This document shows positions 27,953 to 62,781 of a stretch of 64,000 nucleotides of DNA, piece after piece. Every line of letters begins with the position of its first letter. Within the stretch, counting starts at the first letter, position 1. The DNA is from Pristiophorus japonicus (lineage: Eukaryota). The DNA is taken from positions 37,014,001 to 37,078,000 of the forward strand of contig NC_091997.1 of assembly GCF_044704955.1 (NCBI RefSeq), read 5' to 3'. The notes under the pieces are model-generated. The model made no database searches and was not told where the DNA came from. It saw nothing but the letters and a program-made list of their open reading frames with translations. A program made the translations under genes and the position numbers.

Positions 27953-28091
27953 CTCCCTCTGCTCCAAGAGTCTCAGCATCGTATGTTTCCGCTTCAGTCG
28001 TTTCTTGCGCTTACACCAGATGACAAGGAGGACCACGAGGACCATGAACAGCAACGCCCCCACGATCCCAGCCACCACCGAGGTCACCTGG
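27953..28091 (-). CDS. ERBB2: ERBB2 exon 17 equivalent (transmembrane and juxtamembrane-A)
   Basis: QVTSVVAGIVGALLFMVLVVLLVIWCKRKKRLKRKHTMLRLLEQRE; 139 nt; phase-2 acceptor; GTGAGT donor. Confidence 0.95.
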
Positions 28092-28289
28092 CTGCACAGG
28101 AGAGAAGCAGAGAGATGAGTCAAACAAGGACTCGCCTCAGACACCAATCCTTGCTCGAGTGGGCCCATGGTGTGGGGGGCTTGGTGGTTGTACAATCTCC
28201 AAAACTCCAGTTGCTGGTCCTGCACTGACCCTGGGAAAGCAGGGAGCTCGAACCTTGATCTGATTGATCAGAAAAATTCTCTTCACTAC

Positions 28290-30600
28290 TGAGATATATT
28301 CACAGAGCACAAGCACACACAGTTTCCAACATGGCAGGCAGCTCTCTCGGAAGCCTCCGGAAATCTGCCTGGTTCTGTTTATTATTAACCCTACACTTGC
28401 AGTACACAATACGTCCACATCCACAGTGTGGAGCTACAAACATTACAAGCTTACAGACATTACACCTTAATGAAGAAGCCATCATAACAAACATCATAGA
28501 TAACTTTCATATTTTTACATAACACAGGATATATAACTTTTTTTTCCATATTTACAAATTTAACTTTACCACTTGTTTTCTGTTTTGAAGAGGATACCTT
28601 CGCTCTCAAACAGAACCTTCCAAACATGATGTTGAATGTAAACTCATTCGAGGCTCATCCTGAGGAACGTTTTCCTCCACGGAATTTCCTTGATTTTCAT
28701 TTGAACTCACTCTAACTTCAGGCTCTTTGTTTTCCTGACTCGGACTCAGACTTTCATTCTGATTCTCTCTTGGATTTGTTTCCAGTACATTGGATTTAGG
28801 ATTTGCTACTGGAATATCAAAACTATCTGATGAGTCAGAAATAATTGAATAATTCCCACCTTCAACTCCTTCCATGTCTGTAGGTAAAATGTGATCAATA
28901 TGAACAAACCTAACCTGTCCATTATCAAACATCTTTACCAAATATGTGCGAGGACCACATATCTTCACCACTCTTCCTGGTAACCACTTTACCCATTTAT
29001 GGTGATGGTTCTTCACTCTCACCTTCTGGTTTAATTTCACACTTCTCTCTTTTACTCTACCTTTATCATGATTCTCTTTCGGTCTTAATTGTGTCTCTTC
29101 TACGGACTGTGCCAAATTTGGCTTTAACAACGAGAATCTGGTTCGTGGCTGTCGTTTGAGAAACAACTCTGCTGGTGTTCGACCAGTAGTATGAGGAGTA
29201 TTTCGATATGTAATCAAAAAATTAGCCAATTTGTGATCCAATGACAACTGTCGTTTCCTTGGATTTGGATCTAACATTTGTTTTATGAGAGCACGTTTTA
29301 CAATTTGTACAGTGTGCTCTGCTGCACCATTCGAAGCAGGATGGTATGGTGGAACCTTGGTATGTTTCACACCATTTTTGCTCGTGAATTGTGCAAATTC
29401 TTCTGAACGAAATTGTGGTCCATTATCCGAAACAATTTCTTCAGGGAGGCCAAATGAAGAAAATAATTTTTCGGAAAATGTCCAATGTTTTACTTGTTAT
29501 TTTCCACATTGGGAACACCTCAACCCACTTCGAATGGCTATCATTCACAATGGACAATTGCTGTTCTTCTAACTCAGCAAAGTCAATATGTAGCCTTTGC
29601 CACACCCTATGAGGCCATTTCCATGGCTGTAATGGTACTGGTGGTGGTTGCTTGCTTACTGATTGACATGTCGTACACTGACTCAGGATGTACTCTATAT
29701 CTTTATCAAGGCCTGGCCACCATAAATAACTGTGTGCAAAACTCTTGGTCAAGCACATTCCCAGGTGCTGGTCATGGAGGTCTCCTAATAATTTGGACCT
29801 GAATTTATTTGGTATAACCACTCTTGCACCCCACATGATACAATCTTTATCGACTGATAATTCATTCCTACGAGTGAAGACTGGATGTGTATCTTTGTTT
29901 ATTACCTGGTTTGGTCATCCGTTTGCAATATACTCATACACCTTTGACATCACTGGGTCACGTTTGGCTCTTCAGCTGTGACTGGCAGTTCATCAATGTA
30001 TGAAAAATAAAACACTTCTTCCCTATCGGGTGTAACTTGTGATGGGGAAGACAATCTAGACATTGCATCAGCATTACTGTTATCAGCTGATCGTCTGTAT
30101 TCAATATCATACGTATATGCTGATAAAATCAAAGCCCATCTCTGCATTCGGGCTGCAGCTAATGTTGGAATTGGGGACTTTGGATGGAGGATTGCTGTTA
30201 GGGGCTTATGGTCCGTAACGAGAGTAAACTTTCGACCATACAAGTATTTGTGAAACTTCTTGACCCCAAAAATTATTGCCAAAGTTTCCCTTTCAATTTG
30301 CGCATAATTACTCTCACTGGCACTGAGAGTGCGTGAAGCAAAAGCAATTGGTCTCTCCTCCCCACGACTTAATACATGAGAGATTACTGCCCCAACTCGA
30401 TATGGAGAGGCATCACATGCTAGCTTGATCTCCTTAGATATGTCATAGTGAACTAACATGGTGCTCTCTGCCAATTTGCTTTTACACTCCTTGAATGCTG
30501 TATTGCATTCTTTTGACCACTTCCAATGGACCTGTTTTTTCAAAAGTTAATTCAGTGGATGTAATACTGTAGCCAAATTTGGTAGGAACTTCCCATAATA
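28290..30600 (-). mobile_element. 3' half of a second Ty3/Gypsy element (RNase H, integrase, probable 3' LTR ~28290-28464)
   Basis: YYGKFLPNL, LACDASPY, VTDHKPL, HDQH..CTTC, HIDFA, SNGAAE; TG...CA-bounded segment with AATAAA at the left end. Confidence 0.9.
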
Positions 30601-33600
30601 GGGGTCGGGGCCCGGGAGACCAGGAGACCAGGGGTCGGGGCCCGGGAGACCAGGGGTCGGGGCCCGGGAGACCAGGGGCCGGGGCCCGGGAGTCGGGGCC
30701 AGGGAGGCCGGGGACCGGGATGCCGGGGGTCGGGGACGGGGAGAACGGGGGTCGGGGACTGGGGACCGGGAGAACGGGAGTCGGGGACCGGGAGAGCGGG
30801 GGTCGGGTCCCGGGTCCCGGGAGAACAGGGGTCGGGTCCCGGGAGAACAGGGGTGGGGTCCCGGGGCCCGGGAGAACAGGGGTGGGGTCCCGGGGCCCGG
30901 GAGAACAGGGGTGGGGTCCCGGGGCCCGGGAGAACAGGGGTGGGGTCCCGGGGCCCGGGAGAACAGGGGTCGGGGCCCGGGGCCCGGGAGAACAGGGGTC
31001 GGGGCCCGGGGCCCGGGAGAACAGGGGTCGGGGCCCGGGGCCCGGGAGAACAGGGGTCGGGGCCCGGGACCCGGGAGAACAGGGGTCGGGGCCCGGGGCC
31101 CGGGAGAACAGGGGTCGGGGCCCGGGGCCCGGGAGAACAGGGGTCGGGGCCCGGGAGAACAGGGGTCGGGGCCCGGGGCAAAGGAGACCAGGGGTCGGGG
31201 CCCGGGGCAAAGGAGACCAGGGGTCGGGGCCCGGGGCAAAGGAGACCAGGGGTCGGGGCCCGGGGCAAAGGAGACCAGGGGTCGGGGCCCGGGGCAAAGG
31301 AGACCAGGGGTCGGGGCCCGGGGCAAAGGAGACCAGGGGTCGGGGCCCGGGGCAAAGGAGACCAGGGGTCGGGGCCCGGGGCAAAGGAGACCAGGGGTCG
31401 GGGCCCGGGGCAAAGGAGACCAGGGGTCGGGGCCCGGGGCAAAGGAGACCAGGGGTCGGGGCCCGGGGCAAAGGAGACCAGGGGTCGGGGCCCGGGGCAA
31501 AGGAGAGCAGGGGTCGGGGCCCGGGGCAAAGGAGAGCAGGGGTCGGGGCCCGGGGCAAAGGGGAGCAGGGGTCGGGGCCCGGGGCAAAGGAGAGCAGGGT
31601 TCGGGGCCCGGGGCAAAGGAGACCGGGGGTCGGGGCCCGGGAGAGCAGGGGTCGGGGCCCGGGGCCCGTGAGAGCAGGGGTCAAGGCCCGGGGCCCGTGA
31701 GAGCAGGGGTCGGGGCCCGGGGCCCGTGAGAGCAGGGGTCGGGGCCCGGGGCCCGTGAGAGCAGGGGTCGGGGCCCGGGGCCCGTGAGAGCAGGGGTCGG
31801 GGCCCGGGGCCCGTGAGAGCAGGGGTCGGGGCCCGGGGCCCGTGAGAGCAGGGGTCGGGGCCCGGGGCCCGGGGCCCGTGAGAGCAGGGGTCGGGGCCCG
31901 GGGCCCGTGAGAGCAGGGGTCGGGGCCCGGGGCCCGTGAGAGCAGGGGTCGGGGCCCGGGGCCCGTGAGAGCAGGGGTCGGGGCCCGGGGCCCGGGAGAG
32001 CAGGGGTCGGGGCCCGTGGCCCGGGAGAGCAGGGGCCGGGGCCCGTGGCCCGGGAGAGCAGGGGCCGGGGCCCGGGGCCCGGGAGAGCAGGGGTTGGGGC
32101 CCGGGGCCCGGGAGAGCAGGGGTCGGGGCCCGGGAGAGCAGGGGTCGGGGCCCGGGAGCGCAGGGGTCGGGGCCCGGGAGAGCAGGGGTCGGGGCCCGGG
32201 AGAGCAGGGGTCGGGGCCCGGGAGAGCAGCGGTCGGGGCCCGGGAGAGCAGCGGTCGGGGCCCGGGAGAGCAGCGGTCGGGGCCCGGGAGAGCAGGGGTC
32301 GGGGCCCGGGAGAGCAGGGGTCGGGGCCCGGGAGAGCAGGGGTCGGGGCCCGGGAGAGCAGGGGTCGGGGCCCGGGAGAGCAGGGGTCGGGGCCCGGGAG
32401 AGCAGGGGTCGGGGCCCGGGAGAGCAGGGGTCGGGGCCCGGGAGAGCAGGGGTCGGGGCCCGGGAGAGCAGGGGTCGGGGCCCGGGAGAGCAGGGGTCGG
32501 GGCCCGGGAGAGCAGGGGTCGGGGCCCGGGAGAGCAGGGGTCGGGGCCCGGGAGATCAGGGGTCGGGGCCCGGGAGATCAGGGGTCGGGGCCCGGGAGAT
32601 CAGGGGTCGGGGCCCGGGGCCCGGGAGAGCAGGGGTCGGGGCCCGGGAGAGCAGGGGTCGGGGCCCGGGAGAGCAGGGGTCGGGGCCCGGGAGAGCAGGG
32701 GTCGGTGCCCGGGGCCCGGGAGATCAGGGGTCGGGGCCCGGGGCCCGGGAGAGCAGCGGTCGGGACCCGGGAGAGCAGCGGTCGGGGCCCGGGGCCCGGG
32801 AGAGCAGCGGTCGGGGCCCGGGAGAGCAGCGGTCGGGGCCCGGGAGAGCAGGGGTCGGGGCCCGGGGCCCGGGAGAGCAGGGGTCGGTGCCCGGGCACCG
32901 GGAGAGCAGGGGTCGGGGCCCGGGAGAGCAGGGATCGGGGCCCGGGAGAGCAGGGGTGGGGGCTCGGGGGAGCAGGGGTGGCCGCCCGGGGGGGCAGGGG
33001 TGGGGGCCCGGGGGAGCAGGGGTCGGGGACCGGGGGAGCAGGGGTCGGGGACCGGGGGAGCAGGGGTCGGGGCCCGAGGGGGGCAGGGGTCGGGTCCCGT
33101 GGGCCGGGAGACCAGGGGTCGGGGCACGTGGCACGGGAGACCGGGGGTCGGGGCCCGTGGCACGGGAGACCGGGGGTCGGGGCCCGTGGCCCGGGAGACC
33201 GGGGGTCGGGGCCCGTGGCCCGGGAGACCGGGGGTCGGCGCCCGTGGCCCGGGAGACCGGGGGTCGGGGCCCGTGAGACCGGGGGTCGGGGCCCGTGAGA
33301 CCGGGGGTCGGGGCCCGTGTCCCGGGAGACCGGGGGTCGGGGCCCGTGGCCCGGGAGACCGGGGGTCGGGGCCCGTGGCCCGGGAGACCGGGGGTCGGGG
33401 CCCGTGGCCCGGGAGACCGGGGGTCGGGGCTCGTGGCCCGGGAGACCGGGGGTCGGGGCTCGTGGCCCGGGAGACCGGGGGTCGGGCCCCGGGAGACCGG
33501 GGGTCATGGCCCGGGAGACCGGGGTCCGGGAGACCGGAGGTCGGGGCCCGGGATAGCAGGGGTCGGGGCCCGGGAGAGCAGGGGTCGGGGCCCGGGAGAG

Positions 33601-36600
33601 CAGGGGTCGGGGCCCGGGACAGCAGGGGTCGGGGCCCGGGGACCGGGAGAGCAGGGGTCGGGGCCCGGGGCCCGGGAGAGCAGGGGTCGGGGCCCGGGGC
33701 CCGGGAGAGCAGGGGTCGGGGCCCGGGGCCCGGGAGAGCAGGGGTCGGGGCCCGGGGCCCGGGAGAGCAGGGGTCGGGGCCCGGGGCCCGGGAGAGCAGG
33801 GGTCGGGGCCCGGGGCCCGGGAGAGCAGGGGCCGGGGCCCGGGAGAGCAGGGGTCGGGGCCCGGGAGAGCAGGGGTCGGGGCCCGGGGCCCGGGAGAGCA
33901 GGGGTCGGGGCCCGGGAGAGCAGGGGTCGGGGCCCGGGGCCCGGGAGAGCAGGGGTCGGGGCCCGGGGCCCGGGAGAGCAGGGGTCGGGGCCCGGGGCCC
34001 GGGAGAGCAGGGGTCGGGGCCCGGGGCCCGGGAGAGCAGGGGTCGGGGCCCGGGGCCCGGGAGAGCAGGGGTCGGGGCCCGGGGCCCGGGAGAGCAGGGA
34101 TCGGGGCCCGGGAGAGCAGGGGCCGGGGCCCGGGAGAGCAGGGGTCGGGGCCCGGGAGAGCAGGGGTCGGGGCCCGGGAGAGCAGGGGTCGGGGCCCGGG
34201 AGAGCAGGGGTCGGGGCCCGGGAGAGCAGGGGTCGGGGCCCGGGAGAGCAGGGGTCGGGGCCCGGGAGAGCAGGGGTCGGGGCCCCGGAGAGCAGGGGTC
34301 GGGGCCCCGGAGAGCAGGGGTCGGGGCCCCGGAGAGCAGGGGTCGGGGCCCCGGAGAGCAGGGGTCGGGGCCCCGGAGAGCAGGGGTCGGGGCCCCGGAG
34401 AGCAGGGGTCGGGGCCCCGGAGAGCAGGGGTCGGGGCCCGGGAGAGCAGGGGTCGGGGCCCGGGAGAGCAGGGGTCGGGGCCCGGGGCCCGGGAGAGCAG
34501 GGGTCGGGGCCCGGGAGAGCAGGGGTCGGGGCCCGGGGCCCGGGAGAGCAGGGGTCGGGGCCCGGGGCCCGGGAGAGCAGGGGTCGGGGCCCGGGAGAGC
34601 AGGGGTCGGGGCCCGGGGCCTGGGAGAGCAGGGCCGGGGCCCGGGGCCCGGGAGAGCGGGGGTCGGGGCCCGGGGGAGCGGGGGTCGGGGGAGCGGGGGT
34701 CGAGGCCCGTGGCCCGGGAGACCGGGGGTCGGGGCCCGTGGCCCGGGAGACCGGGGGTCGGGGCCCGTGGCCCGGGAGACCGGGGGTCGGGGCCCGTGGC
34801 CCGGGAGACCGGGGGTCGGGGCCCGTGGCCCGGGAGACCGGGGGTCGGGGCCCGTGGCCCGGGAGACCGGGGGTCGGGGCCCGTGGCCCGGGACCCGTGG
34901 CCCGGGAGACCGGGGGTCGGGGCCCGTGGCCCGGGAGACCGGGGGTCGGGGCCCGTGGCCCGGGAGCCGGGGCCCGTGGCCCGGGAGACCGGGGGTCGGG
35001 GCCCGGGGCCCGGGGCCCATGGCCCGGGAGACCGGGGGTCGGGGCCCGTGGCCCGGGAGACCGGGGGTCGGGGCCCGTGGCCCGGGAGACCGGGGGTCGG
35101 GGCTCGTGGCCCGGGAGTCGGGGCTCGTGGCCCGGGAGTCGGGCCCCGGGAGACCGGGGGTCATGGCCCGGGAGACCGGGGTCCGGGAGACCGGGGGTCG
35201 GGGCCCGGGAGAGCGGGGGTCGGGGCCCGGGATAGCAGGGGTCGGGGCCCGGGAGAGCAGGGGTCGGGGCCCGGGAGAGCAGGGGTCGGGGCCCGGGAGA
35301 GCAGGGGTCGGGGCCCGGGGACCGGGAGAGCAGGGGTCGGGGCCCGGGGCCCGGGAGAGCAGGGGTCGGGGCCCGGGGCCCGGGAGAGCAGGGGCCGGGG
35401 CCCGGGGCCCGGGAGAGCAGGGGTCGGGGCCCGGGGCCCGGGAGAGCAGGGGTCGGGGCCCGGGGCCCGGGAGAGCAGGGGTCGGGGCCCGGGGCCCGGG
35501 AGAGCAGGGGTCGGGGCCCGGGGCCCGGGAGAGCAGGGGTCGGGGCCCGGGGCCCGGGAGAGCAGGGGTCGGGGCCCGGGGCCCGGGAGAGCAGGGGTCG
35601 GGGCCCGGGGCCCGGGAGAGCAGGGGTCGGGGCCCGGGGCCCGGGAGAGCAGGGGTCGGGGCCCGGGGCCCGGGAGAGCAGGGGTCGGGGCCCGGGGCCC
35701 GGGAGAGCAGGGGTCGGGGCCCGGGGCCCGGGAGAGCAGGGGTCGGGGCCCGGGGCCCGGGAGAGCAGGGGTCGGGGCCCGGGGCCCGGGAGAGCAGGGG
35801 TCGGGGCCCGGGGCCCGGGAGAGCAGGGGTCGGGGCCCGGGAGAGCAGGGGCCGGGGCCCGGGAGAGCAGGGGTCGGGGCCCGGGAGAGCAGGGGTCGGG
35901 GCCCGGGAGAGCAGGGGTCGGGGCCCGGGAGAGCAGGGGTCGGGGCCCGGGAGAGCAGGGGTCGGGGCCCGGGAGAGCAGGGGTCGGGGCCCCGGAGAGC
36001 AGGGGTCGGGGCCCCGGAGAGCAGGGGTCGGGGCCCCGGAGAGCAGGGGTCGGGGCCCCGGAGAGCAGGGGTCGGGGCCCGGGGCCCGGGAGAGCAGGGG
36101 TCGGGGCCCGGGGCCCGGGAGAGCAGGGGTCGGGGCCCGGGAGAGCAGGGGTCGGGGCCCGGGGCCCGGGAGAGCAGGGGTCGGGGCCCGGGAGAGCAGG
36201 GGTCGGGGCCCGGGGCCTGGGAGAGCAGGGGTGGGGTCCCGGGGCCCGGGAGAACAGGGGTGGGGTCCCGGGGCCCGGGAGAACAGGGGTCGGGGCCCGG
36301 GGCCCGGGAGAACAGGGGTCGGGGCCCGGGGCCCGGGAGAACAGGGGTCGGGGCCCGGGGCCCGGGAGAACAGGGGTCGGGGCCCGGGAGAACAGGGGTC
36401 GGGGCCCGGGGCAAAGGAGACCAGGGGTCGGGGCCCGGGGCAAAGGAGACCAGGGGTCGGGGCCCGGGGCAAAGGAGACCAGGGGTCGGGGCCCGGGGCA
36501 AAGGAGACCAGGGGTCGGGGCCCGGGGCAAAGGAGACCAGGGGTCGGGGCCCGGGGCAAAGGAGACCAGGGGTCGGGGCCCGGGGCAAAGGAGACCAGGG

Positions 36601-39600
36601 GTCGGGGCCCGGGGCAAAGGAGACCAGGGGTCGGGGCCCGGGGCAAAGGAGACCAGGGGTCGGGGCCCGGGGCAAAGGAGACCAGGGGTCGGGGCCCGGG
36701 GCAAAGGAGACCAGGGGTCGGGGCCCGGGGCAAAGGAGACCAGGCGTCGCGGCCCGGGGCAAAGGAGACCAGGGGTCGGGGCCCGGGGCAAAGGAGACCA
36801 GGGGTCGGGGCCCGGGGCAAAGGAGACCAGGGGTCGGGGCCCGGGGCAAAGGAGACCAGGGGTCGGGGCCCGGTGCAAAGGAGACCAGGGGTCGGGGCCC
36901 GGGGCAAAGGAGACCAGGGGTCGGGGCCCGGGGCAAAGGAGACCAGGGGTCGGGGCCCGGGGCAAAGGAGACCAGGGGTCGGGGCCCGGGGCAAAGGAGA
37001 CCAGGGGTCGGGGCCCGGGGCAAAGGAGACCAGGGGTCGGGGCCCGGGGCAAAGGAGACCAGGGGTCGGGGCCCGGGGCAAAGGAGACCAGGGGTCGGGG
37101 CCCGGGGCAAAGGAGACCAGGGGTCGGGGCCCGGGGCAAAGGAGACCAGGGGTCGGGGCCCGGGGCAAAGGAGACCAGGGGTCGGGGCCCGGGGCAAAGG
37201 AGACCAGGGGTCGGGGCCCGGGGCAAAGGAGACCAGGGGTCGGGGCCCGGGGCAAAGGAGAGCAGGGGTCGGGGCCCGGGGCAAAGGAGAGCAGGGGTCG
37301 GGGCCCGGGGCAAAGGAGAGCAGGGGTCGGGGCCCGGGGCAAAGGAGAGCAGGGGTCGGGGCCCGGGGCAAAGGAGAGCAGGGTTCGGGGCCCGGGGCAA
37401 AGGAGACCGGGGGTCGGGGCCCGGGAGAGCAGGGGTCGGGGCCCGGGGCCCGTGAGAGCAGGGGTCAAGGCCCGGGGCCCGTGAGAGCAGGGGTCGGGGC
37501 CCGGGGCCCGTGAGAGCAGGTGTCGGGGCCCGGGGCCCGTGAGAGCAGGGGTCGGGGCCCGGGGCCCGTGAGAGCAGGGGTCGGGGCCCGGGGCCCGTGA
37601 GAGCAGGGGTCGGGGCTCGTGGCCCGGGAGACCGGGGGTCGGGGCTCGTGGCCCGGGAGACCGGGGGTCGGGCCCCGGGAGACCGGGGGTCATGGCCCGG
37701 GAGACCGGGGTCCGGGAGACCGGGGGTCGGGGCCCGGGATAGCAGGGGTCGGGGCCCGGGAGAGCAGGGGTCGGGGCCCGGGAGAGCAGGGGTCGGGGCC
37801 CGGGACAGCAGGGGTCGGGGCCCGTGGCCCGGGAGACCGGGGGTCGGCGCCCGTGGCCCGGGAGACCGGGGGTCGGGGCCCGTGGCCCGGGAGACCGGGG
37901 GTCGGGGCCCGGGAGACCGGGGGTCGGGGCCCGTGGCCCGGGAGACCGGGGGTCGGGGCCCGTGAGACCGGGGGTCGGGGCCCGTGTCCCGGGAGACCGG
38001 GGGTCGGGGCCCGTGAGACCGGGGGTCGGGGCTCGTGGCCCGGGAGACCGGGGGTCGGGGCTCGTGGCCCGGGAGACCGGGGGTCGGGCCCCGGGAGACC
38101 GGGGGTCATGGCCCGGGAGACCGGGGGTCGGGGCCCGGGATAGCAGGGGTCGGGGCCCGGGAGAGCAGGGGTCGGGGCCCGGGAGAGCAGGGGTCGGGGC
38201 CCGGGACAGCAGGGGTCGGGGCCCGGGGACCGGGAGAGCAGGGGTCGGGGCCCGGGGCCCGGGAGAGCAGGGGTCGGGGCCCGGGGCCCGGGAGAGCAGG
38301 GGTCGGGGCCCGGGGCCCGGGAGAGCAGGGGTCGGGGCCCGGGGCCCGGGAGAGCAGGGGTCGGGGCCCGGGGCGCGGGAGAGCAGGGGTCGGGTCCCGG
38401 GGCCCGGGAGAGCAGGGGTCGGGGCCCGGGGGTCGGGAGAGCGGGGGTCGGGGCCCGGGAGAGCGGGGGTCGGGGCCCGGGGGAGCGGGGGTCGGGGCCC
38501 GGGGGAGCGGGGGTCGGGGCCCGGGGGAGCGGGGGTCGGGGCCCGGGGGAGCGGGGGTCGGGGCCCGGGGGAGCGGGGGTCGGGGCCCGGGGGTCGAGGC
38601 CCGTGGCCCGGGAGACCGGGGGTCGGGGCACGTGGCCCGGGAGACCGGGGGTCGGGGCCCGTGGCCCGGGAGACCGGGGGTCGGGGCCCGTGGCCCGGGA
38701 GACCGGGGGTCGGGGCCCGTGGCCCGGGAGACCGGGGGTCGGGGCCCGTGGCCCGGGAGACCGGGGGTCGGGGCCCGTGGCCCGGGAGTCGGGGCCCGTG
38801 GCCCGGGAGACCGGGGGTCGGGGCCCGTGGCCCGGGAGACCGGGGGTCGGGGCCCGTGGCCCGGGAGACCGGGGGTCGGGGCCCGTTGCCCGGGAGACCG
38901 GGGGTCGGGGCCCGTGGCCCGGGAGACCCGGGGTCGGGGCCCGTGGCCCGGGAGTCGGGGCCCGTGGCCCGGGAGACCGGGGGTCGGGGCCCGTGGCCCG
39001 GGAGACCGGGGGTCGGGGCCCGTGGCCCGGGAGACCGGGGGTCGGGGCCCGGGACCCGGGAGAGCAGGGGTCGGAGCCCGGGACCCGGGAGAGCAGGGGT
39101 CGGGGCCCGGGGCCCGGGACCCGGGAGAGCAGGGGTCGGGGCCCGGGAGAGCAGGGGTCGGGGCCCGGGACCCGGGAGAGCAGGGGTCGGGGCCCGGGAG
39201 AGCAGGGGTCGGGGCCCGGGAGAGCAGGGGTCGGGGCCCGGGAGAGCAGGGGTCGGGGCCCGGGAGAGCAGGGGTCGGGGCACGGGAGAGCGGGCGTCGG
39301 GGCCGGGAGAGCGGGTGTCGGGGCCCGGGAGACCGGGCCCGGGAGACTGGGGGTCGGGGCCCGGGAGACCGGGGGTCGGGGGTCGGGGCCCTGGAGACCG
39401 GGGGTCGGGGCCCGGAAGAACGGGGGTCGGGGTCAGGGAGACCGGGGGTCGGGGCCAGGGAGACCGGGGGTCGGGGCCAGGGAGACCGGGGGTCGGGGCC
39501 AGGGAGACCGGGGGTCGGGGCCAGGGAGACCGGGGGTCGGGGCCAGGGAGACCGGGGGTCGGGGCCCGGGACCCGGAGCCCGGGAGAGCAGGGGTCGGGG

Positions 39601-45818: not shown

Positions 45819-45829
45819 AAGAGACTCAC

Positions 45830-45891: not shown

Positions 45892-45957
45892 CTGCAAAAT
45901 GAAAATGACAATAAATGCCACATTGCCGGTGGGTGTAAAACCACGACTGTTGGGTCA

Positions 45958-46056
<99 letters not shown>

Positions 46057-46915: not shown

Positions 46916-46934
46916 CCTCTAAAGACTCTTAGTT

Positions 46935-50500: not shown

Positions 50501-51085
50501 GATCTGTGTTGGGGCCACAACTATTCAGAGTATTTATTCATGACTTAGATGATGGCATAGAAAGTCTCATATCCAAATTTCCCAAGACACAAAAATAGGC
50601 AGTACTGTAGGCAGTGTAGATGGAATCACAAAATGACGAAGGGATATCGACAGATTTAGTGAATGAGCAAAACTGTGGCAAATGGATTTCAATGTAGGTA
50701 AATGTTTCAGGTCCACTTTCGACCTAAAAAGGAGAGAACAGGATACTTTCTAAATGCTGCAAGGCTAAAAACAGTGGAGGTCCACAGAGAATCAGGGGTC
50801 CAGGTACATAGATCATTAAAATGGCATGAACAGGTACAGAAAATAATCAAAAAGGCTAATGGAATGCTGGCCTTTATATCCAGAGGACTAGAATACAAGG
50901 GGGTAGAAGTTATGCTGCAGCCATACAAAGCCCTGGTTAGACCACACCTGGAGCACTGTGAGCAGTTCTGAGCACCACACCTTAGGCCACACCTGGAGTA
51001 CTGTGAGCAGTGCTGGGCACCACATCTTAGGGAGGATATATCGGCCTTGGAGGGAATGTAGCGTAGGTTTACCAGAACGATACCG
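47546..51085 (+). mobile_element. Long decayed CR1 spanning the ORF1 esterase end, APE endonuclease and RT; interrupted by a minus-strand CR1 (~47676-48380)
   Basis: NTWLKEWCGKEGF and WDGLYLNQAG (SGNH-like); GGVALVIK, GVVYRPP, GHFNF, SDHN (APE); SPGPDGFH and later RT motifs. Confidence 0.8.
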
Positions 51086-53360
51086 GGGTGCCGCAGGGAT
51101 CAGGGCTGGGACCCCAACTATTTACAATCTATATTAACAACTTGGATGAAGGGACCGAGTGTAACGTAGACAAGTTTGCTGATGATACAAAGATGGGAGG
51201 AAAAACAATGTGTGAGGAGGACACAAAAAATCCTGCAAAAGGACATAGACAGGCTAAGTGAATGGGCAAAAATTTGGCAGATGGAGTATAATGTTGGAAA
51301 GTGTGAGGTTATGCACTTTGGCAGAAAAATCAAAGAGCAAGTTATTATTTAAATGGAGAAAAATTGCAAAATGCTGCAGGACCTAGGGGTCCTGGTGCAT
51401 GAAACACAAAAGGTTAGTATGCAGGTATAGCAAGTGATCAGGAAGACAAATGGAATCTTGGTGTTTATTGCAAAGGGGATGGAGTATAAAAGTAGGGAAG
51501 TCTTGCTACAGTTATACAGGGTAATGGTGAGGCCACACCTAGAATACTGCGTGCAGTTTTGGTTTCTATATTTAAAAAAAGATGTACTTGCTTTGGAGGC
51601 AGTTCAGAGAAGGTTCATTCGGTTGATTCCGGAGATGAGGGGGTTGACTTATGAGGAAAGGTTGAGGAGGTTGGGCCTCTACTCATTGGAATTCAGAAGA
51701 ATGAGAGGCGATCTTATTGAAATGTATAAGATTATGAGGGGGCGTGACAAGGTGGATGCAGAGTGGATGTTTCCACTGATAGGGGAGACTAGAACTAGAG
51801 GGCATGATCTTAGAATAAGGGGCCACCCATTTAAAACTGAGATGAGAAGGAATTTCTTCTCTCAGAGGGTTGTAAATCTGTGGAATTCGCTGCCTCAGAG
51901 AGCTGTGGAAGCTGGGACATTGAATAAATTTAAGACAGAGACAGATAGTTTCTTAACAGATAAGGGGATAAAGGGTTATGGGGAGCGGGCAGGGAAGTGG
52001 AGCTGAGTCCCTGATCGGATCAGCTATGATCGTATTAAGTGGCGGAGCAGGCTCGAGGGGCCGTATGGCCTACTCCTGTTCCTATTTCATATGTTCTTAT
52101 GTAAGATATTAAGGGGAACTGATACGGTAGATAGAGAGAAACAATTTCTGCTGGTTGGGGAGACACTGGAGAGGGTGCAGAGAAGATTTACATGGATGGT
52201 ACCAGAAATGTAAGAGTGTACCTCTCAGGGAAAGATGAACAAGCTGGGTCTCTTTTCTCTTGAAAAAAGGCGGCTAAGTGGTGACCTAATTGAGGTCTTT
52301 CAAATGATGAAAGGTTTTGATAGAGTGGATACGGAGAGAATGTTCCACTTGTGGGGAAGAGCGAATCTAGAGGCCACCAATATAAGATCGTCACCAATAA
52401 ATCCAGAATTCAGAAGAAACTTCTTTACCCAGAGAGTGGTGAGAATGTGGAACTCGCTGCCACAGGGAGTGGTTGAAGCGAATAGTATCGATGCATTTAA
52501 GGGGAGGCTAGACAAGCATATGGGGGAGAAAGGAATAGAGGGTTATGCTGATAGATTTAGATGAGGAAAGACGGGAGGAGGCTCGAGTGGAGCATAAACG
52601 CCGGCATGGACTGGTTGGGCTGAATGGCCTGTTTCTGAGCCGTATATCCGATGTAATATTGCCTCTCTTCATTCTTCCTACCAAAATTTATCACTTCGCA
52701 CTTTTCTGTGTTAAATTTCATCTGCCACGTGTCCACCCATTCCACTAGCCTGTCCTATGTCCTCTTGAAGTCTTACTGCAACTATATAGGGCATTGGTGA
52801 GACCACACCTGAGGTATTGTGTACAGTTTTGGTCTCTTTATCCAAGGAAGGATATACTTACCTTAGAGGGAATGCAACATAGGTTCACCAGACTGATTCC
52901 TGGAATGGGGGGGGGGGAATTGTCCGATGAGGAGAGATTGAGCAGACTGGGCCGATATTCCCCAGAGTTTAGAAGAATGAGAGGTGATCCCATTGAAATG
53001 TTAAAATTCTTAAGCGGCTTGACTGGGTAGATACTGGGAAAATCATTCCCCTGGCTGGAGAATCTATAACTAGGGGTCAGTCTCAGAATAGAGGGTCAGC
53101 CATTTAGGACTGAGATGAGGAAAAGTTTCTTCACTCAGAGGGTTATGAATCTTTGGAATTCTCTACCCCAGAGGGCTGTGGATGCTCAGTCGTTGAATAT
53201 ATTCAAGACAGAGATCGATAAATGTTGGATATTAAGGGAATTAAGGGATATGGGGATAGTGCGGGAAAGTGGAGTTGAGGTCGAAGATCAGCCATGATCT
53301 TATTAAATGATGGAGCAGGCTCGAGGGGCCAAATTGCCTACTCCTGCTCCTAATTCTTAT
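51086..53360 (+). mobile_element. Cluster of at least three CR1 3' fragments
   Basis: ORFs 51434..52006, 52235..52564, 52794..53030 and 53115..53297 with CR1 C-terminal motifs and 3' UTRs. Confidence 0.9.
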
Positions 53361-53444
53361 CTTTTTTCACGAGGAGGAGCCAATAGAAATCTAATTGTCC
53401 CCTTCGTGCAGTCGCTTAAGGAATGATCGATGGAGTGATTCAAC

Positions 53445-53718
53445 ACACCCCTGCCCGCTCCCCTTCCCCACCTCCCGCACCCTCTCCCCATTCCCGTCCC
53501 GCCCGCACCCCACCCACCCTCTCCCTTTAACCCCCACCTGCTCCCCTTCCCCACCTCCCGTACCCTCTCCCCATTCCCCTCCCGCCCACCCTCTCCTTGT
53601 AGCCTCCACCAGCTCCCCTTCCCCACCTCCCGTGCCCCGCTCCCACCCTCTCCCCATTCCCCCCCCACCCGCCATCTCCCTCACCCGCCCACTCCCCCAC
53701 CACCCTCTCCCCATCCTC
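53445..53718 (+). repeat. C-rich low-complexity repeat
   Basis: Recurrent CTCCCCTTCCCCACCTCCCG units. Confidence 0.8.
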
Positions 53719-54061
53719 ACAGGCATTAGAATAAGCCTTGGACGAGGGTGGGATAAATCGGCCAGAGTTCCCGCTCCTGATTCCTGCTAGAACCTGTGTG
53801 GACACAGGGTGAGACCAGGATCAGGCTCGGGCCGATGCCCCCCTAGCACGGTGTGTGAATAGCCCGACAATACTCAGCATTCCCAGGGATCGCTGAGAGG
53901 TTTGAAAGGCAATGCCGGAGGGTGCAGGGCAGGCAGGCAGTTACGATCCTGACAGTGGGGGTGGAACACTGAACAAGCCCAGAGACACCACGGCTTTACA
54001 AATAACTGGGTTTATAGATGCCACCACGGGAGAGCAGAGCAGAGACAAGTGTTGGGGTTAC

Positions 54062-54214
54062 CATGGCGAAAGAGATGCAGGTTTGGTACATCGGAGACTC
54101 GATAGGCACAGCTGCCCGGTATCGGCCCAACATTGCAAAGTTGGCCAGTCCGTTCAGCACTGAGGCAATGGCCGAAGCAGGCTCCTGGAAGAAGAGGAAT
54201 CGGTAGAAGGGCCA
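54062..54214 (-). CDS. PGAP3: PGAP3 exon 3
   Basis: [51 protein letters not shown]; 153 nt; AG/GT. Confidence 0.96.
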
Positions 54215-54542
54215 CTGCAAGAGGAAATGCAAACACAGGCACTGGTCAAAGCACAGAGAGCGCCCGGCATCCCAAGCCTCCCCTCCTCTCTCATTCATCC
54301 TGTCCACCCCCTCCTACTCACTCGCCTCCCGACTGTTCCCTCCCTCCATTCCCTTCCGACCCACCAATGCCCTCACCCCCAATTCTCCTCTCCCCAAGGT
54401 GGGGTCTCGGCAAGGGAATTTCAGGCTCCCCATTCGTTCCCTGCTGTCAAATCAGAGCCCCAGCCAATGAAAGTGCTGACAGCTGAAGCTGTCATCGATC
54501 ACATGCCTGTCAGTCAGCGCCTCGCGGCAGCGACAACTTTAC

Positions 54543-54640
54543 CTTGCCATGAAATTGAGGCACGTTGTGTCCTTCTTTAACGTACAGTCCCACTGTCGCC
54601 CACATACAGTTGTACTTACAGTCATCAGCACAGCTCCAGC
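54543..54640 (-). CDS. PGAP3: PGAP3 exon 2
   Basis: (G)[32 protein letters not shown]; 98 nt; AG/GT. Confidence 0.97.
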
Positions 54641-54941
54641 CTGCCAACACAAACAGACACAAACAACGTCAAAGCTCAGACTGCTGACGGCAACTCATTC
54701 CGACAAAGCTTCATCGCTCGGAGGCAGCGCAGCATTAATGTGTTGGCCATTGCCCGAGAATAAGCCACACAAACCAGACGGGCGCAGGCTCCATCCCCAG
54801 CCTATGATGAGCGGGCTGATCTCAGATGGGCCGCGCTACCCCAGGAACTCAGGAAAGGAAATCCAACTGCTTCCTGTTCCTGATCAATTTCTACTCACTC
54901 CAACTGGACTGGAAAGGACGTGAACATCATGCACAGACGGA

Positions 54942-57905
54942 ATAGAAACAGAAATTTACAGCGTAGGAGGAGGCCATCTCAGCCCATCGTGTCCATGCCG
55001 GCCGACAAAGAGCCCAACGGCCCTCGGTCAGCAACCCTGAAGGTTACATATAAACCTATGAACAATGGCGGAAAGGTAAAAAGCACCCAGCCCAACCAGT
55101 CTGCCTCACACAACTGCGACACCCCTTATACTGAAACATTCTATACTCCACCCCAACCGAAGCCATGTGATCTCCTGAGAGAGGCAAAAACCAGATAAAA
55201 ACCCAGGCCAATTAGGGAAATAAAAATCTGTGAAAATTCCTCTCCGACCCATCAGGTGATCGAAACTAATCCACGAGATCACCCTGGCCGTATTAGATTC
55301 CATGATGTACTTACCATCGTGCCAGCTCTAGGTCCGTAACCCTGCAGGTTATGGCACTTCAAGTGCCCATCCAAGCACCTTTTAAATGTGGTGAGGGTTT
55401 CTGCATCCACCATCCTTCCAGGCAGTGAGATAGAAATCCCCACAACCCTCTACGTGAAGAAGCCCCCCTCAAATCCCCTCTGAACCTTCCACCAACTACC
55501 TTAAAACTATGCCCCCTCGTAATTGACCCCTCCACCAATGGAAATAGGTCCTTGCTATACACTATATCGAGGCCCCTCAAAATGTTATGTGCCTCAATAA
55601 GGTCTCCCCTCAGCCTCCCCTGTTCCAATGAGAAACATAGAAAGTAGGTGCAGGAGTAGGCCATTCGGCCCTTCGAGCCTGCACCACCATTCAATAAGAT
55701 TATGGCTGATCATTCACCTCAGTACCCTTTCCTGCTTTCTCTCCATACCCCTTGATCCCTTTAGCAGTAAGGGCCATATCTAACTCCCCCTTGAATATAT
55801 CCAACGAACTGGCATCAACAATACTCTGCGGTAGGGAACTCCACAGGTTAACAACTCCCTCCGAGTGAAGAAGTTTCTCCTCATCTCAGTTCTAAATGGC
55901 TTACCCCTTATCCTTAGACTGTGTCCTCTGGTTCTGGACTTCCCCAACATCGGGAACATTCTTCCTGTGTCTAACCTGTCCCGTCCCGTCAAAATTTTAT
56001 CTGTTTCTATGAGATCCCCTCTCATCCTTCTAAACTCCAGTGAATAAAGGCCCAGTCGATCCAGTCTCTCCTCATATGTCAGTCTAGCCCTCCCTGGAAT
56101 CAGTCTGGAGAACCTTCGCTGCACTCCCTCAATAGCAAGAATGTCTTTCCTCAGATTTGGAGACCAAAACTGAACACAATATTCCAGGTGAGGCCTCACC
56201 AAGGTCCTGTACAACTGTAGTAAGACCCCCCTGCTCCTATACTCATAACCCCTAGCTATGAAGGCCAACATACCATTTGCCTTCTTCACCCAGCTTATCC
56301 AATCTGTCCTCATAGCTAAGATTCTCCATTCCAGGCAGCATCCTCGTAAATCTCCTCTGCACCCTCTCCAGTGCAATCATGTCCTTCCTATAATACGGCG
56401 ACCCGAACTGCACGCAGTATTCCAGCTGTGGCCTAACCAAAGTATTATACAATTTAAGCATAACCTCTCTGCTCTTGTATTCTATGCCTCGGCCAATAAA
56501 GGCAAGCATTCCGTATGCCTTCTTAACCACCTTATCCACCTGGCCTGCTTCTTTCAGGGATCTGTGGATAAACACTCCAAGGTCCTTCTGTTCATCTACA
56601 CTATTAAGTGACCTACCATTTAATGTGTATACCCTTTCCTTATTAGCCCTCCCCAAGTGCATCACCTTACACTTCTGAATTAAATTCCATTTGCCACTAC
56701 TCTGCCCACCTGACCAGTAGATTTATATCCTCCTGCAGTCCATGACTTTCCTCTTCATTATCAACCACACAGCCAATTTGAGTGTCATCTTCAAACTTCT
56801 TAATCATACCCCCTATATTCAAATCTAGATCATTGATGTATACCACAAAAAGCAAGGGACCCAGTACTGAGCCCTGCAGAACCCCAATGGAAACATCCTT
56901 CCAGTCACAAAAACTCTCATCAACCATTACCCTTTGCTTCCTACCTCCAAGCCAATTTTGGATCCAACTTGCCACTTTGCCCTGGATCTCATGGGCTTTT
57001 ACCTTCATGACCAGTCTGCCATGTGGGACCTTATCAAAAGCTTTGCTAAAGTCAATATACACATCATACGCACTACCCTCATCGACCCTCCTGGTTACCT
57101 CCTCGAAAAATTCAATCGGGTTAGTCAAACACGACCTTCCCTTAACAAATCCGTGCTGACTGTCCCGGATTAATCCTTGCCTTTCCAAATGTAGATTTAT
57201 CCTGTCTTTCAGGATTTTTTCCAATAATTTTCCCACCACTGAGGTTAGGCTGACAGGCCTGTAATTACTCGGCCTCTCCCTTTCTCCCTTCTTAAACAAG
57301 GGTACCACATTAGCAGTCCTCCAATCCTCCGGCACCATGCCTGAATCCAAAGAGGACTGGAAAATGATGGTCAAGGCCTCTGCTATTTTCTCTCTTGCTT
57401 TGGTCAACAGCCTGGGATGCACTTCATCCGGGTCTGGGGACTTATCCACTTTCAATGCTGCCAAACCCCCCAATACCTCCTCTTTCACTATGTCTATTTC
57501 GTCCAGAATTTCACACTCCTCCTCAATAGCAGTATCTACATTACCCCTTTCCTTTGTGAAAACAGACGCAAAGTATTAATTAAGAAGCATACCAACATCT
57601 TCCGCCTCCATACACAGATTACCCTCATGGTTTCTAATAGGCCCTACCCTTTCTTTAGTTACCCTCTTGCTCTTAATATATTTATAGAACATCTTTGGGT
57701 TTTCCTTGATTTTACTTGCCATGAATTTTTCATGCTCTGTCTTAGCATTCCAAATATCCTTCTTAATTTTACCTCTGAACTTTCTATATTCCTCCAGAGA
57801 TTCTACAGTATTTAGCTGTCGGTATATGACATAAGCTTTCCTTTTTTTCTTTCTCCTCCCTTGTAAGTCCCAAATCATCAGGGGCTCTAGAATTGTTATT
57901 CCCAC
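54942..57905 (-). mobile_element. CR1 LINE with an extended 3' UTR, interrupted by another CR1 3' fragment (~55633-56288)
   Basis: ORFs 57576..57905, 56697..57488 and 56252..56665; host sequence TGTTCCAATGAGAA resumes as CCCAGCTTATCC after the insert. Confidence 0.92.
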
Positions 57906-57914
57906 CCTCCAGAC

Positions 57915-58756
57915 AGTCAGTGCCTGTGGAACCGTACCCGAGTGAGAGTCAGTGTGTGTGTGTGGGACCCGTACCCCAGTGAGAGTCAGTGTGTGTGGGA
58001 CTGTACCCCAGTGAGAATCAGTGTGTGTGGGACCCGTACCCCAGTGAGAGTCAGTGTGTGTGGGACTGTACCCCAGTGAGAATCAGTGTGTGTGGGACGA
58101 TACCCGTGTGAGAGTCAGTGTGTGTGGAACTGTAACCCAGTGAGAGTCAGTGTGTGTGGAACTGTACCCCAGTGAGAGTCAGTATGTGTGTAACCGTACC
58201 CCAGTGAGAGTCAGTGTGTGTGGGACTGTACCCCAGTGAGAGTCAGTGTGTGTGGGACTGTACCCCAGTGAGAGTCAGTGTGTGTGGGACTGTACCCCAG
58301 TGAGAGTCAGTGTGTGTGGGACTGTACCCCAGTGAGAGTCAGTGTGTGTAGAACTGCACCCCAGTGAGAGTCAGTATGTGTGGGACTGCACCCCAGTGAG
58401 AGTCAGTGTGTGTGGGACTGCACCCCAGTGAGAGTCAGTGTGTGTGGGACCCGTACCCCTGTGAGAGTCATTGTGCGTAGGATCCGTACCCTAGTGAGAG
58501 TCAGTGTGTGTGGAACAGTATCCAGGTGAGAGTCAGAGTTTGTAGAACTGCACCCCAGTGAGAGTCAGTGTGTGTGGGACCCGTACCCCAGTGAGAGTCA
58601 GTGTGTGTGGGACCCGTACCCCAGTGAGAGTCAGTGTGTGTGGAACTGTACCCCAGTGAGAGTCAGTGTGTGTGGAACTGTACCCCAGTGAGAGTCAGTG
58701 TGTGTGGAACTGTACCCCAGTGAGAGTCAGTGTGTGGGGACCCGTACCCCAGTGAG
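57915..58756 (+). repeat. GAGAGTCAGTGTGTGTGGGACTGTACCCCAGT minisatellite, left part
   Basis: About 25 tandem units. Confidence 0.95.
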
Positions 58757-61675
58757 AAACATAGAAAATAGAAACATAGAAAATAGGTGCAGGAGTCGGC
58801 CATTCAGCCCTTCGAGCCTGCACCGCCATTCAATAAGATCATGGCTGATCATTCCCCTCAGTACCCCTTTCCTGCTTTCTCTCCATACCCCTTGATCTCT
58901 TTAGCCGTAAGGGCCATATCTAACTCTCCCTTGAATATATCCAATGAACTGGCATCAACAACTTTCTGCGGCAGGGAATTCCGCAGGTTAACAACTCTCT
59001 GAGTGAAGAAGTTTTTCCTCATCTCAGTCCTAAATGGCTTACCCCTTATCGTTAGACTATGGCCCTTGGTTCTGGACTTTCCCAACATCGGGAACATTCT
59101 TCCTGTATCTAACCTGTCCAGTCCCATCAGAATTTTATATGTTTCTATGAGATCCCCTCTCATCCTTCTAAACGCCAGTGAATATAGGCTCAGTCAATCC
59201 AGTCTCTCCTCATATGTCAGTCCTGCCACCCCGGGAATCAGTCTGGTGAACCTTCGCTGCACTCCCTCAATATCAAGAACGTCCTTCCTCAGGTTGGGAG
59301 ACCAAAACTGAACACAATATTCCAGGTGCGGCCTCACCAAGGCCCTGTACAACTGCAGTGAGACCTCCCTGCTCCTCTACTCAAATCCCCTAGCTATGAA
59401 GGCCAACATGCCATTTGCCTTCTTCACCACCTGCTGTATCTGCATTCCAACTTTCAATGACTGATGAACCATGACACCCAGGTCGCGCTGCACCTCCCCT
59501 TTTCCTAATCTGCCGCTATTCAGATAATATTCTGCCTTCGTGTTTTTGCCCCCAAAGTGGATAACCTCACATTTATCCACATTATACTGCATTTGCCATG
59601 CGTTTACCCACTCACCTAACCTGTCCAAGTCACCCTGCAGCCTTTTAGCATCCTCCTCACAGCTCACACTGCCACCCAGCTTAGTGTCATCTGCAAACTT
59701 GGAGATATTACACTCAATTCCCTCATCCAAATCATTAACGTATATTGTTAATAGCTGGGGTCCCAGCACTGAGCCCTGCGGCACCCCATTAGTCACTGCC
59801 TGCCATTCTGAAAAAGACCCTTTTATCCCGATTCTCTGCTTCTTGTCTGCTGACCATAGAAACATAGAAACATAGAAAATAGGTGCAGGAGTAGGCCATT
59901 CGGCCCTTCTAGCCTGCACCGCCATTCAATGAGTTCATGGCTGAACATTCAACTTCAGTACCCCATTCCTGCTTTCTCGCCATACCCCTTGATCCCCCTA
60001 GCAGTAAGGACCTCATCTAACTCCTTTTTGAATATATTTAGTGAATTGGCCTCAACAACTTTCTGTGGTAGAGAATTCCACAGGTTCACCACTCTCTGGG
60101 TGAAGAAGTTCCTCCGCATCTCGGTCCTAAATGGCTTACCCCTTATCCTTAGACTGTGACCCCTGGTTCTGGACTTCCCCAACATTGGGAACATTCTTCC
60201 TGCATCTAACCTGTCTAACCCCGTCAGAATTTTATATGTTTCTATGAGGTCCCCTCTCATTCTTCTGAACTCCAGTGAATACAAGCCCAGTTGATCCAGT
60301 CTTTCTTGATAGGTCAGTCCCGCCATCCCGGGAATCAGTCTGGTGAACCTTCGCTGCACTCCCTCAATAGCAAGAATGTCCTTCCTCAGGTTAGGAGACC
60401 AAAACTGTACACAATACTCCAGGTGTGGCTTCACCAATGCCCTGTACAACTGTAGCAACACCTCCCTGCCCCTGTACTCAAATCCCCTTGCTATGAAGGC
60501 CAACATGCCATTTGCTTTCTTAACCGCCTGCTGCACCTGCATGCCAACCTTCAATGACTGATGTACCATGACACCCAGGTCTCTTTGCACCTCCCCTTTT
60601 CCTAATCTGTCACCATTCAGATAATAGTCTGTCTCTCTGTTTTTACCACCAAAGTGGATAACCTCACATTTATCCACATTATACTTCATCTGCCATGCAT
60701 TTGCCCACTCACCTAACCTATCCAAGTCGCTCTGCAGCCTCACAGCATCCTCCTCGCAGCTCACACTGCCACCCAACTTAGTGTCATCCGCAAATTTGGA
60801 GATACTACATTTAATCCCCTCATCTAAATCATTAATGTACAGTGTAAACAGCTGGGGCCCCAGCACAGAACCTTGCGGTACCCCACTAGTCACTGCCTGC
60901 CATTCTGAAAAGTACCCATTTACTCCTACTCTTTGCTTCCTGTCTGACAACCAGTTCTCAATCCATGTCAGTACACTACCCCCAATCCCATGTGCTCTAA
61001 CTTTGCACATCAATCTCTTGTGTGGGACCTTGTCGAACGCCTTCTGAAAGTCCAAATATACCACATCAACTGGTTCTCCCTTATCCACTCTACTGGAAAC
61101 ATCCTCAAAAAATTCCAGAAGATTTGTCAAGCATGATTTCCCTTTCACAAATCCATGCTGACTTGGACCTATCATGTCACCTCTTTCCAAATGCACTGCT
61201 ATGACATCCTTAATAATTGATTCCATCATTTTACCCACTACCGATGTCAGGCTGACCGGTCTATAATTCCCTGTTTTCTCTCTCCCTCCTTTTTTAAAAA
61301 GTGGGGTTACATTGGCTACCCTCCACTCCATAGGAACTGATCCAGAGTCAATGGAATGTTGGAAAATGACTGTCAACGCATCCACTATTTCCAAGGCCAC
61401 CTCCTTAAGTACTCTGGGATGCAGTCCATCAGGCCCTGGGGATTTATCGGCCTTCAATCCCATCAATTTCCCCAACACAATTTCCCGGCTAATAAGGATT
61501 TCCCTCAGTTCCTCCTCCTTACTAGACCCCCCGACCCCTTTTATAACTGGAAGGTTGTTCGTGTCCTCCTTCGTGAATACCGAACCAGTTCTCTATCCAC
61601 GTCAGTACATTACCCCCAATACCATGTGCTTTAACGCTGCACACCAATCTCTTGTGTGGGACCTTGTCAAAAGCC
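58757..61675 (-). mobile_element. CR1 (58757-59856 plus 61584-61675) hosting a younger CR1
   Basis: Host RT sequence is continuous across the insert; ACCA at both junctions. Confidence 0.9.
59856..61587 (-). mobile_element. Young 5'-truncated CR1 with an uninterrupted 507-aa RT-to-stop ORF (59955..61478)
   Basis: All RT motifs in one frame (KSPGPDG, NYRPVSL, QHGF, DFQKAFD, GVPQGS, FADD); (AGAAACAT)n tail. Confidence 0.95.
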
Positions 61676-61676
61676 A

Positions 61677-62348
61677 GAGAGTCAGTGTGTGTGGGACTGT
61701 ACCTCAGCGAGAGTCAGTGTGTGTGGGACTGTACCTCAGCGAGAGTCAGTGTGTGTGGGACTGTACCTCAGCGAGAGTCAGTGTGTGTGGGACTGTACCT
61801 CAGCGAGAGTCAGTGTGTGTGGGACTGTACCTCAGCGAGAGTCAGTGTGTGTGGGACTGTACCTCAGCGAGAGTCAGTGTGTGTGGGACTGTACCTCAGC
61901 GAGAGTCAGTGTGTGTGGGACTGTACCTCAGCGAGAGTCAGTGTGTGTGGGACTGTACCTCAGTGAGAGTCAGTGTGTGTGGGACCCGAACCCCAGTGAG
62001 AGTCAGTGTGTGGGACTGTACCTCAGCGAGAGTCAGTGTGTGTGGGACTGTACCCCAGTGAGAGTCAGTGTGTGTGTGGGACTGTACCCCAGTGAGAGTC
62101 AGTGTGTGTGGGACCCGAACCCCAGTGAGAGTCAGTGTGTGTGGGACTGTACCCCAGTGAGTCAGTGTGTGTGGGACCTGAACCCCAGTGAGAGTCAGTG
62201 TGTGTGGGACTGTACCCCAGTGAGAGTCAGTGTGTGTGGGACCCGAACCCCAGTGAGAGTCAGTGTGTGGGACCCGAACCCCAGTGAGAGTCAGTGTGTG
62301 GGACCCGAACCCCAGTGGGAGTGAGTGTATGTGGGACTGTACCCCAGA
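61677..62348 (+). repeat. Same minisatellite, right part
   Basis: Array resumes after the nested CR1s. Confidence 0.95.
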
Positions 62349-62405
62349 GGTGAAGGATTAATGGTCACGGTGAAGGATTGGGGTGAGGTGTGAAGGGTCC
62401 CTCAC

Positions 62406-62583
62406 CTGCCAGCAGCATGTGGAGAGGCTGCAGTTTGCGGAAGGCCCGGAGCCCGGCGCCAGTGCAGTTTTCCTGCTCGCACAGCCAGACGCAGTGGCGG
62501 TAATGGGGCTCGCGGTCCCCCTGGGAGCAGCGCACGGCCCGCAGCCCCACCACACAGCACAGGGCCAGGGCGGCGGCCCACAT
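62406..62583 (-). CDS. PGAP3: PGAP3 exon 1 (post-GPI attachment to proteins phospholipase 3; signal peptide)
   Basis: [42 protein letters not shown]...QPLHMLLA(G), matching human SQGDREPVYRDC...QPIYMSLAG; GTGAG donor, phase 1. Confidence 0.96.
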
Positions 62584-62726
62584 CCCGGAGCCCAGCTCCC
62601 GGCTCCCCGCGCGGCCTCAACCCGCAGCCCGGGGTCCGTATCAGCCCAGCGCGCCGGCCCCGCCCCCGTCCACCGCGCTGGCCCCGCCCCCGCCCCGGAC
62701 CGGAAGTGAGTGCGGGCGGCGGGAGG
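62584..62726. promoter_or_regulatory. CpG-island bidirectional promoter
   Basis: 143 nt between divergent ATGs; tandem CCCCGCCCC (Sp1) boxes and CCGGAAGTG (ETS/GABP) at 62700-62708. Confidence 0.8.
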
Positions 62727-62781
62727 ATGCGGCTCGCGGGTCTGCTGCTGCTCAGCGCGCTGAGCTCCGCCCGGAGACCAG
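62727..62781 (+). CDS. ERBB2: Probable ERBB2 exon 1 (signal peptide MRLAGLLLLSALSSARRP)
   Basis: ATG with A at -3, hydrophobic core, phase-1 donor CCAG|GTGAGA as in ERBB exon 1, head-to-head with PGAP3. Identity rests on synteny rather than sequence similarity. Confidence 0.6.

Follow-up and report, generated by a model that had tools for sequence, protein, structure and literature searches.

We conclude that a 79,429-bp piece of the Pristiophorus japonicus assembly, lying between two runs of 200 N, was very likely placed backwards at scaffolding and that the PGAP3-ERBB2 chimera found there is probably an assembly artefact. In the animal itself, PGAP3 and ERBB2 are likely to be an unremarkable head-to-head pair. 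The window, meaning the whole 64,000-nucleotide stretch analysed, is G000:C21:37,014,001-37,078,000 in a genome (G000) of 5.9 Gb and 4318 contigs; positions above 64000 continue the window numbering rightward, and adding 37,014,000 converts them to G000:C21.

As assembled, the minus strand carries PGAP3 exons 1-5 (62583 to 45830), repeat B, 200 N, satellite A, and ERBB2 exons 17-27 (28091 to 14319). The initial annotation had described PGAP3 exons 1-5 ahead of ERBB2 exons 17-27 in frame on this strand, and the exon coordinates bear it out. The further elements of that description also hold. A tblastn search with shark proteins placed no PGAP3 exon 6-8 and no ERBB2 ectodomain exon between 28091 and 45830, ERBB2 exon 1 points the opposite way (+), the run of N at 44566-44765 is 200 long when measured, and the repeats on its two sides are unrelated, with 0 shared 15-mers on either strand. 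Right of the window we found everything that had been predicted there, as a mirror image: ERBB2 exons 2-16 (+), reverse-complemented satellite A, a second gap of 200 N, and PGAP3 exons 6-8 (+); reverse-complemented repeat B is present there too, between the second gap and PGAP3 exon 6. Mis-orientation, already the favoured reading, is supported by the strand switches that coincide with the gaps, the repeat mirror, the exon order, and transcripts that join ERBB2 exons 16 and 17.

Structure of the ERBB2 and PGAP3 genes

ERBB2 exon 1, which encodes the signal peptide, is at 62727-62781 (+), starts as in P0008, and ends in a GT donor. The whole ectodomain is encoded by exons 2-16, placed by tblastn outside the window at 78148-91845 (+), with the phase 2 exon 16 at 91801-91845 (+). 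The TM, kinase, and tail exons 17-27 lie on the minus strand at 14319-28091 by tblastn with P0008, P0010, and P0007; with boundary picking, exons 17-20 are at 28091-27953, 26948-26826, 25609-25511, and 24553-24368, exons 21-24 at 22679-22521, 22123-22048, 21749-21603, and 19159-19062, and exons 25-27 at 18067-17894, 15532-15253, and 14666-14319. Exon edges were chosen at AG/GT beside the tblastn matches, and the canonical splice sites are thus partly there by construction; the independent check on the edges is provided by open frames and protein identities. When the middle piece is flipped, ERBB2 stays open for 1,185 codons with 1001 of 1183 residues identical to catshark P0008 (84.6%), and its ectodomain has 514 of 627 residues identical to the shark protein. 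The corrected gene has the L1-CR1-L2-CR2 ectodomain, TM segment, tyrosine kinase, and 27 exons of an ERBB2 orthologue, and tblastn covers the domains of P0008 from residue 10 to 1235. The closest named relatives are erbB-2 among the best 120 of 1366 matches, and the best listed relatives of the kinase exon are cartilaginous-fish ERBB2 proteins. A search of G000 gave one match for exon 17 and one for exons 15-16. Intron 16 would span at least 49.0 kb after the flip.

In the last ERBB2 exon, near 14484 (-), there is a one-base frame shift relative to P0008 and P0010, with 59-76% identity kept in both frames, which is likely a consensus error. Three public runs (X1-X3) contain this exon at a word share of 0.94; a single differing site would predict a 4.9% loss, and the observed share fits one such site.

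PGAP3 exons 1-3 (62583-62406, 54640-54543, and 54214-54062) and 4-5 (46056-45994 and 45891-45830) were found on the minus strand by tblastn with P0121 and P0127 and match the Per1 family. Exons 6-8 were placed by tblastn on the plus strand outside the window, at 127511-127647, 128786-128990, and 130820-130883. The flipped gene encodes 319 aa without an internal stop, agrees with catshark P0121 at 264 of 314 aligned residues (84.1%), and has the full Per1 domain (PF04080), 8 exons, and length of about 318 aa of a PGAP3 orthologue. Its intron 5 is about 4.4 kb after the flip. We note that an unplaced contig of 8,096 bp, C3551, holds a second copy of the region around PGAP3 exons 6-8, matching at 97-99% in the best-matching parts and spanning from inside repeat B to a CT-rich tract; it is probably a retained haplotig. 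We considered C3551 as a contig that spans the gap and rejected it, given its 8,096 bp, its start inside repeat B, and its end short of PGAP3 exon 5.

The two ATGs (62583, - and 62727, +) are separated by 143 bp, at 62584-62726, within a kilobase (62001-63000) of GC 0.66 and CpG o/e 0.60. The intergenic stretch is likely to act as a shared bidirectional promoter, a function inferred from the sequence; it contains GC boxes and a motif at 62700 that we take to be of ETS/GABP type. Lengths of transcript contigs suggest an ERBB2 5' UTR of 24-31 nt. Human PGAP3 and ERBB2 are head-to-head as well. The shark pair resembles vertebrate ERBB2 and PGAP3 in its 27 and 8 exons and in the head-to-head arrangement, which is seen directly here, and differs in having ATGs 143 bp apart, a satellite-swollen intron 16, and a frame-shifted last ERBB2 exon.

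Gaps, repeats, and the flip

The first gap (44566-44765, 200 N) forms the left end of the likely mis-oriented piece, which occupies 44766-64000 in the window and continues to 124194, where its twin, of exactly 200 N, follows at 124195-124394. Only one other N run occurs in the 514 kb examined (404 + 50 + 60 kb), which makes three in all; it is 530 N long, lies at 18185-18714 in ERBB2 intron 24 between colinear exons, and may be either a gap or masked sequence. We infer that the 200-N runs are assembly gaps rather than masked sequence, because the two are of equal length and the repeat type changes abruptly across them; 200 N is a usual scaffold spacer. ERBB2 and PGAP3 switch strand at these two runs only, which are the two ends of the piece.

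The repeats beside the gaps give a second line of evidence. Satellite A on the left, at 30600-44565, was delimited by TRF, consists of GC-rich 22/29-bp units that are G-rich on the plus strand, and forms the 3' portion of ERBB2 intron 16; the counterpart of this array at 92543-124194 (31.7 kb), recognised by composition and k-mer sharing, is in reverse complement. Repeat B begins the piece at 44766-45825 (TRF), with GA-rich units of ~19 bp that are G-rich on the plus strand, and forms the 5' part of PGAP3 intron 5; the other part, at 124395-126680, is again in reverse complement, as judged by k-mer sharing. The share of common 15-mers is 0.60 between left A and reverse-complemented right A and 0.35 for the corresponding parts of B, versus 0.0 for any same-strand or cross-family pair. 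Over the 500 bp flanking the gaps, the assembled order gives 12-mer shares of 0.0 and 0.0, which rise to 0.27 and 0.51 when 44766-124194 is flipped. The same flip brings the 27 ERBB2 exons into order on one strand and does likewise for PGAP3 exons 1-7, with exon 8 beyond exon 7. A single operation thus restores both repeat continuity and gene colinearity, and the earlier claim that flipping the contig right of the gap would repair both genes is upheld in exon order, strand, open frames, and the pairing of like repeats. This repeat-mirror test offers a cheap means of orienting small contigs.

Megablast of the two A arrays for a dovetail overlap returned 7 short matches of 15-20 bp despite 19% shared 51-mers, and the parts of B align at only 71-81%, with no overlap found that closes either gap. 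A transposon split by satellite A was sought as an extra orientation marker; blastn between the unique flanks gave no match, and no element half was seen after exon 16. An LTR element piece at ~28300-30600 (-) is truncated, RNase H/integrase-like, and cut off by satellite A. Another LTR retrotransposon, at ~2050-8030 (-), retains a zinc knuckle, RT, RNase H, and integrase, each in its own disrupted frame; both elements are Ty3/Gypsy-like. The introns are filled with many LINE RT fragments.

The orientation measured here is relative only, and an alternative is that the middle piece is correct and one or both flanking contigs are mis-placed, or that the pieces come from different haplotypes. A GRB7-like BPS match 560 kb to the left, on the plus strand and opposite to ERBB2 exons 17-27, and the duplication of PGAP3 exons 6-8 on the unplaced C3551 would agree with this. 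However, flipping the middle alone repairs both genes and both repeats, and the alternative needs two flanks to be swapped and flipped. We consider it exceedingly improbable, and it would leave the biological conclusion, that there is no fusion, unchanged.

Under the preferred reading, a mis-oriented middle piece, the contig assembler may have broken twice, once in ERBB2 intron 16, where the GC-rich satellite spans at least 45 kb, and once in the GA-rich low-complexity tract of PGAP3 intron 5. The piece is short and ends on one side in a 32-kb repeat; its orientation signal would be weak, and it could have been inserted in reverse between spacers of fixed length. In PMC10234299, the main long-read gap sites in human include satellite (22.3%) and GA/AT-rich DNA (27.4%), and the piece here likewise ends in satellite and GA-rich DNA. 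PMC6719893 describes inversions as frequent in Hi-C scaffolding of short contigs. The shark case resembles such an orientation error in its short piece of 79 kb, two equal spacers, and one flip that repairs everything. As a counterpoint, 31 of 38 mis-orientations in human assemblies overlapped true inversion polymorphisms, according to PMC10234299. Those are flanked there by segmental duplications, whereas the shark locus is without these.

Transcripts and the fusion readings

Transcript evidence came from three public runs, which represent at most three samples from one study and are possibly not from the assembled animal; we take them to be RNA from the splicing of their contigs. Run contigs, which drop rare variants, were compared over 26700-28400 of the window. 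Each run gave one contig (4288, 5221, and 4155 nt, at depths of 253, 62, and 175) with 0 differing letters over ERBB2 exons 17 and 18. All three omit the 1004-bp intron 17 at the exon 17-18 splice, and are therefore spliced. Beyond the exon 17 acceptor the three share the same 30 letters, which match ERBB2 exon 16 exactly at 91813-91842. Upstream of exon 17 the contigs extend for 1914, 1907, and 1781 nt, known by length only past those 30 letters; the coding length of ERBB2 exons 1-16 is 1883 nt and that of PGAP3 exons 1-5 is 554 nt. The upstream lengths fit ERBB2 exons 1-16 and not PGAP3 exons 1-5.

On the ERBB2 side, then, transcripts follow the corrected order (exon 16-17, three of three runs). 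An exon 16-17 mRNA is beyond the reach of ordinary splicing if the two parts of ERBB2 lie on opposite strands, and no second assembled locus supplies one, because exon 17 matches G000 once, as do exons 15-16. Among the loose ends listed (18 of 20) in the three runs there was no PGAP3 partner at exon 17, and no chimeric RNA was found in these contigs, from which rare forms could be missing. The three runs have no cover at 28125-28238, the part of intron 16 next to exon 17; a hole of this kind proves nothing, and we do not count it against the first exon of the public model P0001. The initial annotation had named normal junctions with no chimera as the outcome that would speak against a fusion; that outcome was obtained for the ERBB2 exon 16-17 junction in all three runs and covers the ERBB2 side only.

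The end of PGAP3 exon 5 and the start of ERBB2 exon 17 are both in phase 2; a fusion junction between them would be in frame, and the computed join (LCCVR-QVTSVVAGIV) stays open for 742 aa. The claim of an open-frame chimera stands to this extent, but the frame match is no better than chance: phases are equal in 62 of the 182 ERBB2 x PGAP3 intron pairs (34%), roughly one in three, and the in-frame join is therefore unremarkable. The computed join keeps the kinase, as does p95HER2-type HER2, which is ectodomain-less.

Exons and repeats would be arranged just as in a flipped contig if the sequenced animal truly carried an inversion, whether on a single haplotype or private to that animal, that broke ERBB2 intron 16 and PGAP3 intron 5. 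It would produce two reciprocal in-frame fusions: ERBB2(1-16)-PGAP3(6-8), open for 762 aa, and PGAP3(1-5)-ERBB2(17-27), open for 742 aa, the latter a kinase that lacks the ectodomain. PMC10164992 lists PGAP3-ERBB2 (8 cases) and ERBB2-PGAP3 (12 cases) in human tumours, where most ERBB2 fusions arise via inversion. The gene pair and the inversion geometry are alike here, and the computed join likewise retains the kinase; the tumour fusions are somatic and come from tumour sequencing, whereas in the shark the chimeric junction is unseen and the breakpoints are unsequenced gaps. Both junctions in the assembly are N runs rather than sequenced DNA, and an inversion would need both breakpoints to fall exactly in the unsequenced 200-N spacers. 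The two original introns also have no inverted homologous repeats for ectopic recombination: A and B have 0 of 4139 14-mers in common on either strand and 1 of 3441 12-mers. All orphaned exons are intact, the frame match is what chance gives, and the loose ends listed show the normal junction only, at depths of 62-253 on unbroken contigs. We therefore regard a real inversion as very unlikely. The form of it in which a germline 79-kb inversion on one haplotype produces reciprocal fusions and the runs examined derive from normal haplotypes or animals has an equally slim chance of being correct. If true, such a germline HER2 fusion would be highly unexpected in a wild vertebrate.

Trans-splicing from opposite strands is known from Drosophila mod(mdg4). 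An inversion fixed in the species, with full-length ERBB2 mRNA made by trans-splicing of exons 1-16 to exons 17-27, would account for both the assembled order and the exon 16-17 junction. However, in-frame cis-splicing from PGAP3 exons 1-5 should then dominate, and no such junction occurs among the loose ends listed. PGAP3 would need the same trick, and both gaps and the repeat mirror would be left unexplained, which makes this scenario extremely unlikely.

Neighbouring genes, public models, and consequences

The order at the locus is GRB7-like, ERBB2 3', PGAP3 3', TCAP, which does not discriminate between the readings. The GRB7/10/14-type BPS match is at G000:C21:36,456,129-36,456,245 (+), 560 kb left of the window. 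In human, GRB7 and ERBB2 are on the same strand, and there may be another rearrangement or mis-orientation between the GRB7-like match and ERBB2. TCAP (telethonin) is present as two inverted copies 36 kb apart, at G000:C21:37,893,165 (+) and 37,929,352 (-), which are 98% identical over ~560 bp; other inverted repeats lie close by, the interval between the copies has no N, and the pair is either a local duplication or a false one. As a synteny marker, MIEN1 gave PF10262 matches in 0 of 24 candidates, which is uninformative given how intron-rich the gene is. Just past the 3' end of PGAP3, a one-strand array of 17-bp units extends for ~185 kb, from 146259 to about 333000, with no N run. In five other sharks, full-length ERBB2 and PGAP3 are recorded on contigs of matching length, apparently the same contig in each. 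A literature search on shark genome assemblies and ERBB2 turned up nothing about this locus.

The public model of this locus is P0001 (Pristiophorus japonicus in UniRef, 'erbB-2-like', 560 aa, in a cluster of one). Its first 25 residues are read from intron 16, it ends at the frame-shifted stop, and it has the kinase and TM domains with no Per1 domain and no ectodomain; it is a truncated, ectodomain-less ERBB2 and not a chimera. The expectation that gene predictors would emit a chimera here was thus not borne out, as P0001 begins in intron 16 without a PGAP3 part and no chimera occurs among the matches listed. PF04080 is absent from the best 120 of 1366 ERBB2-side matches, and an ERBB domain from all 83 PGAP3-side matches. 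A bamboo shark model of 602 aa, P0011, is likewise an ERBB2 that starts at exon 17 without an ectodomain, and hints that shark assemblies repeatedly break in intron 16.

These findings describe a reference error that can be fixed. Left in place, P0001 could lead studies of shark ERBB2 evolution or of cancer genes to report, wrongly, that the receptor is truncated or lost. The PGAP3-ERBB2 fusion is very likely not a real feature of this animal, and the biology is very likely ordinary, with intact ERBB2 and PGAP3.
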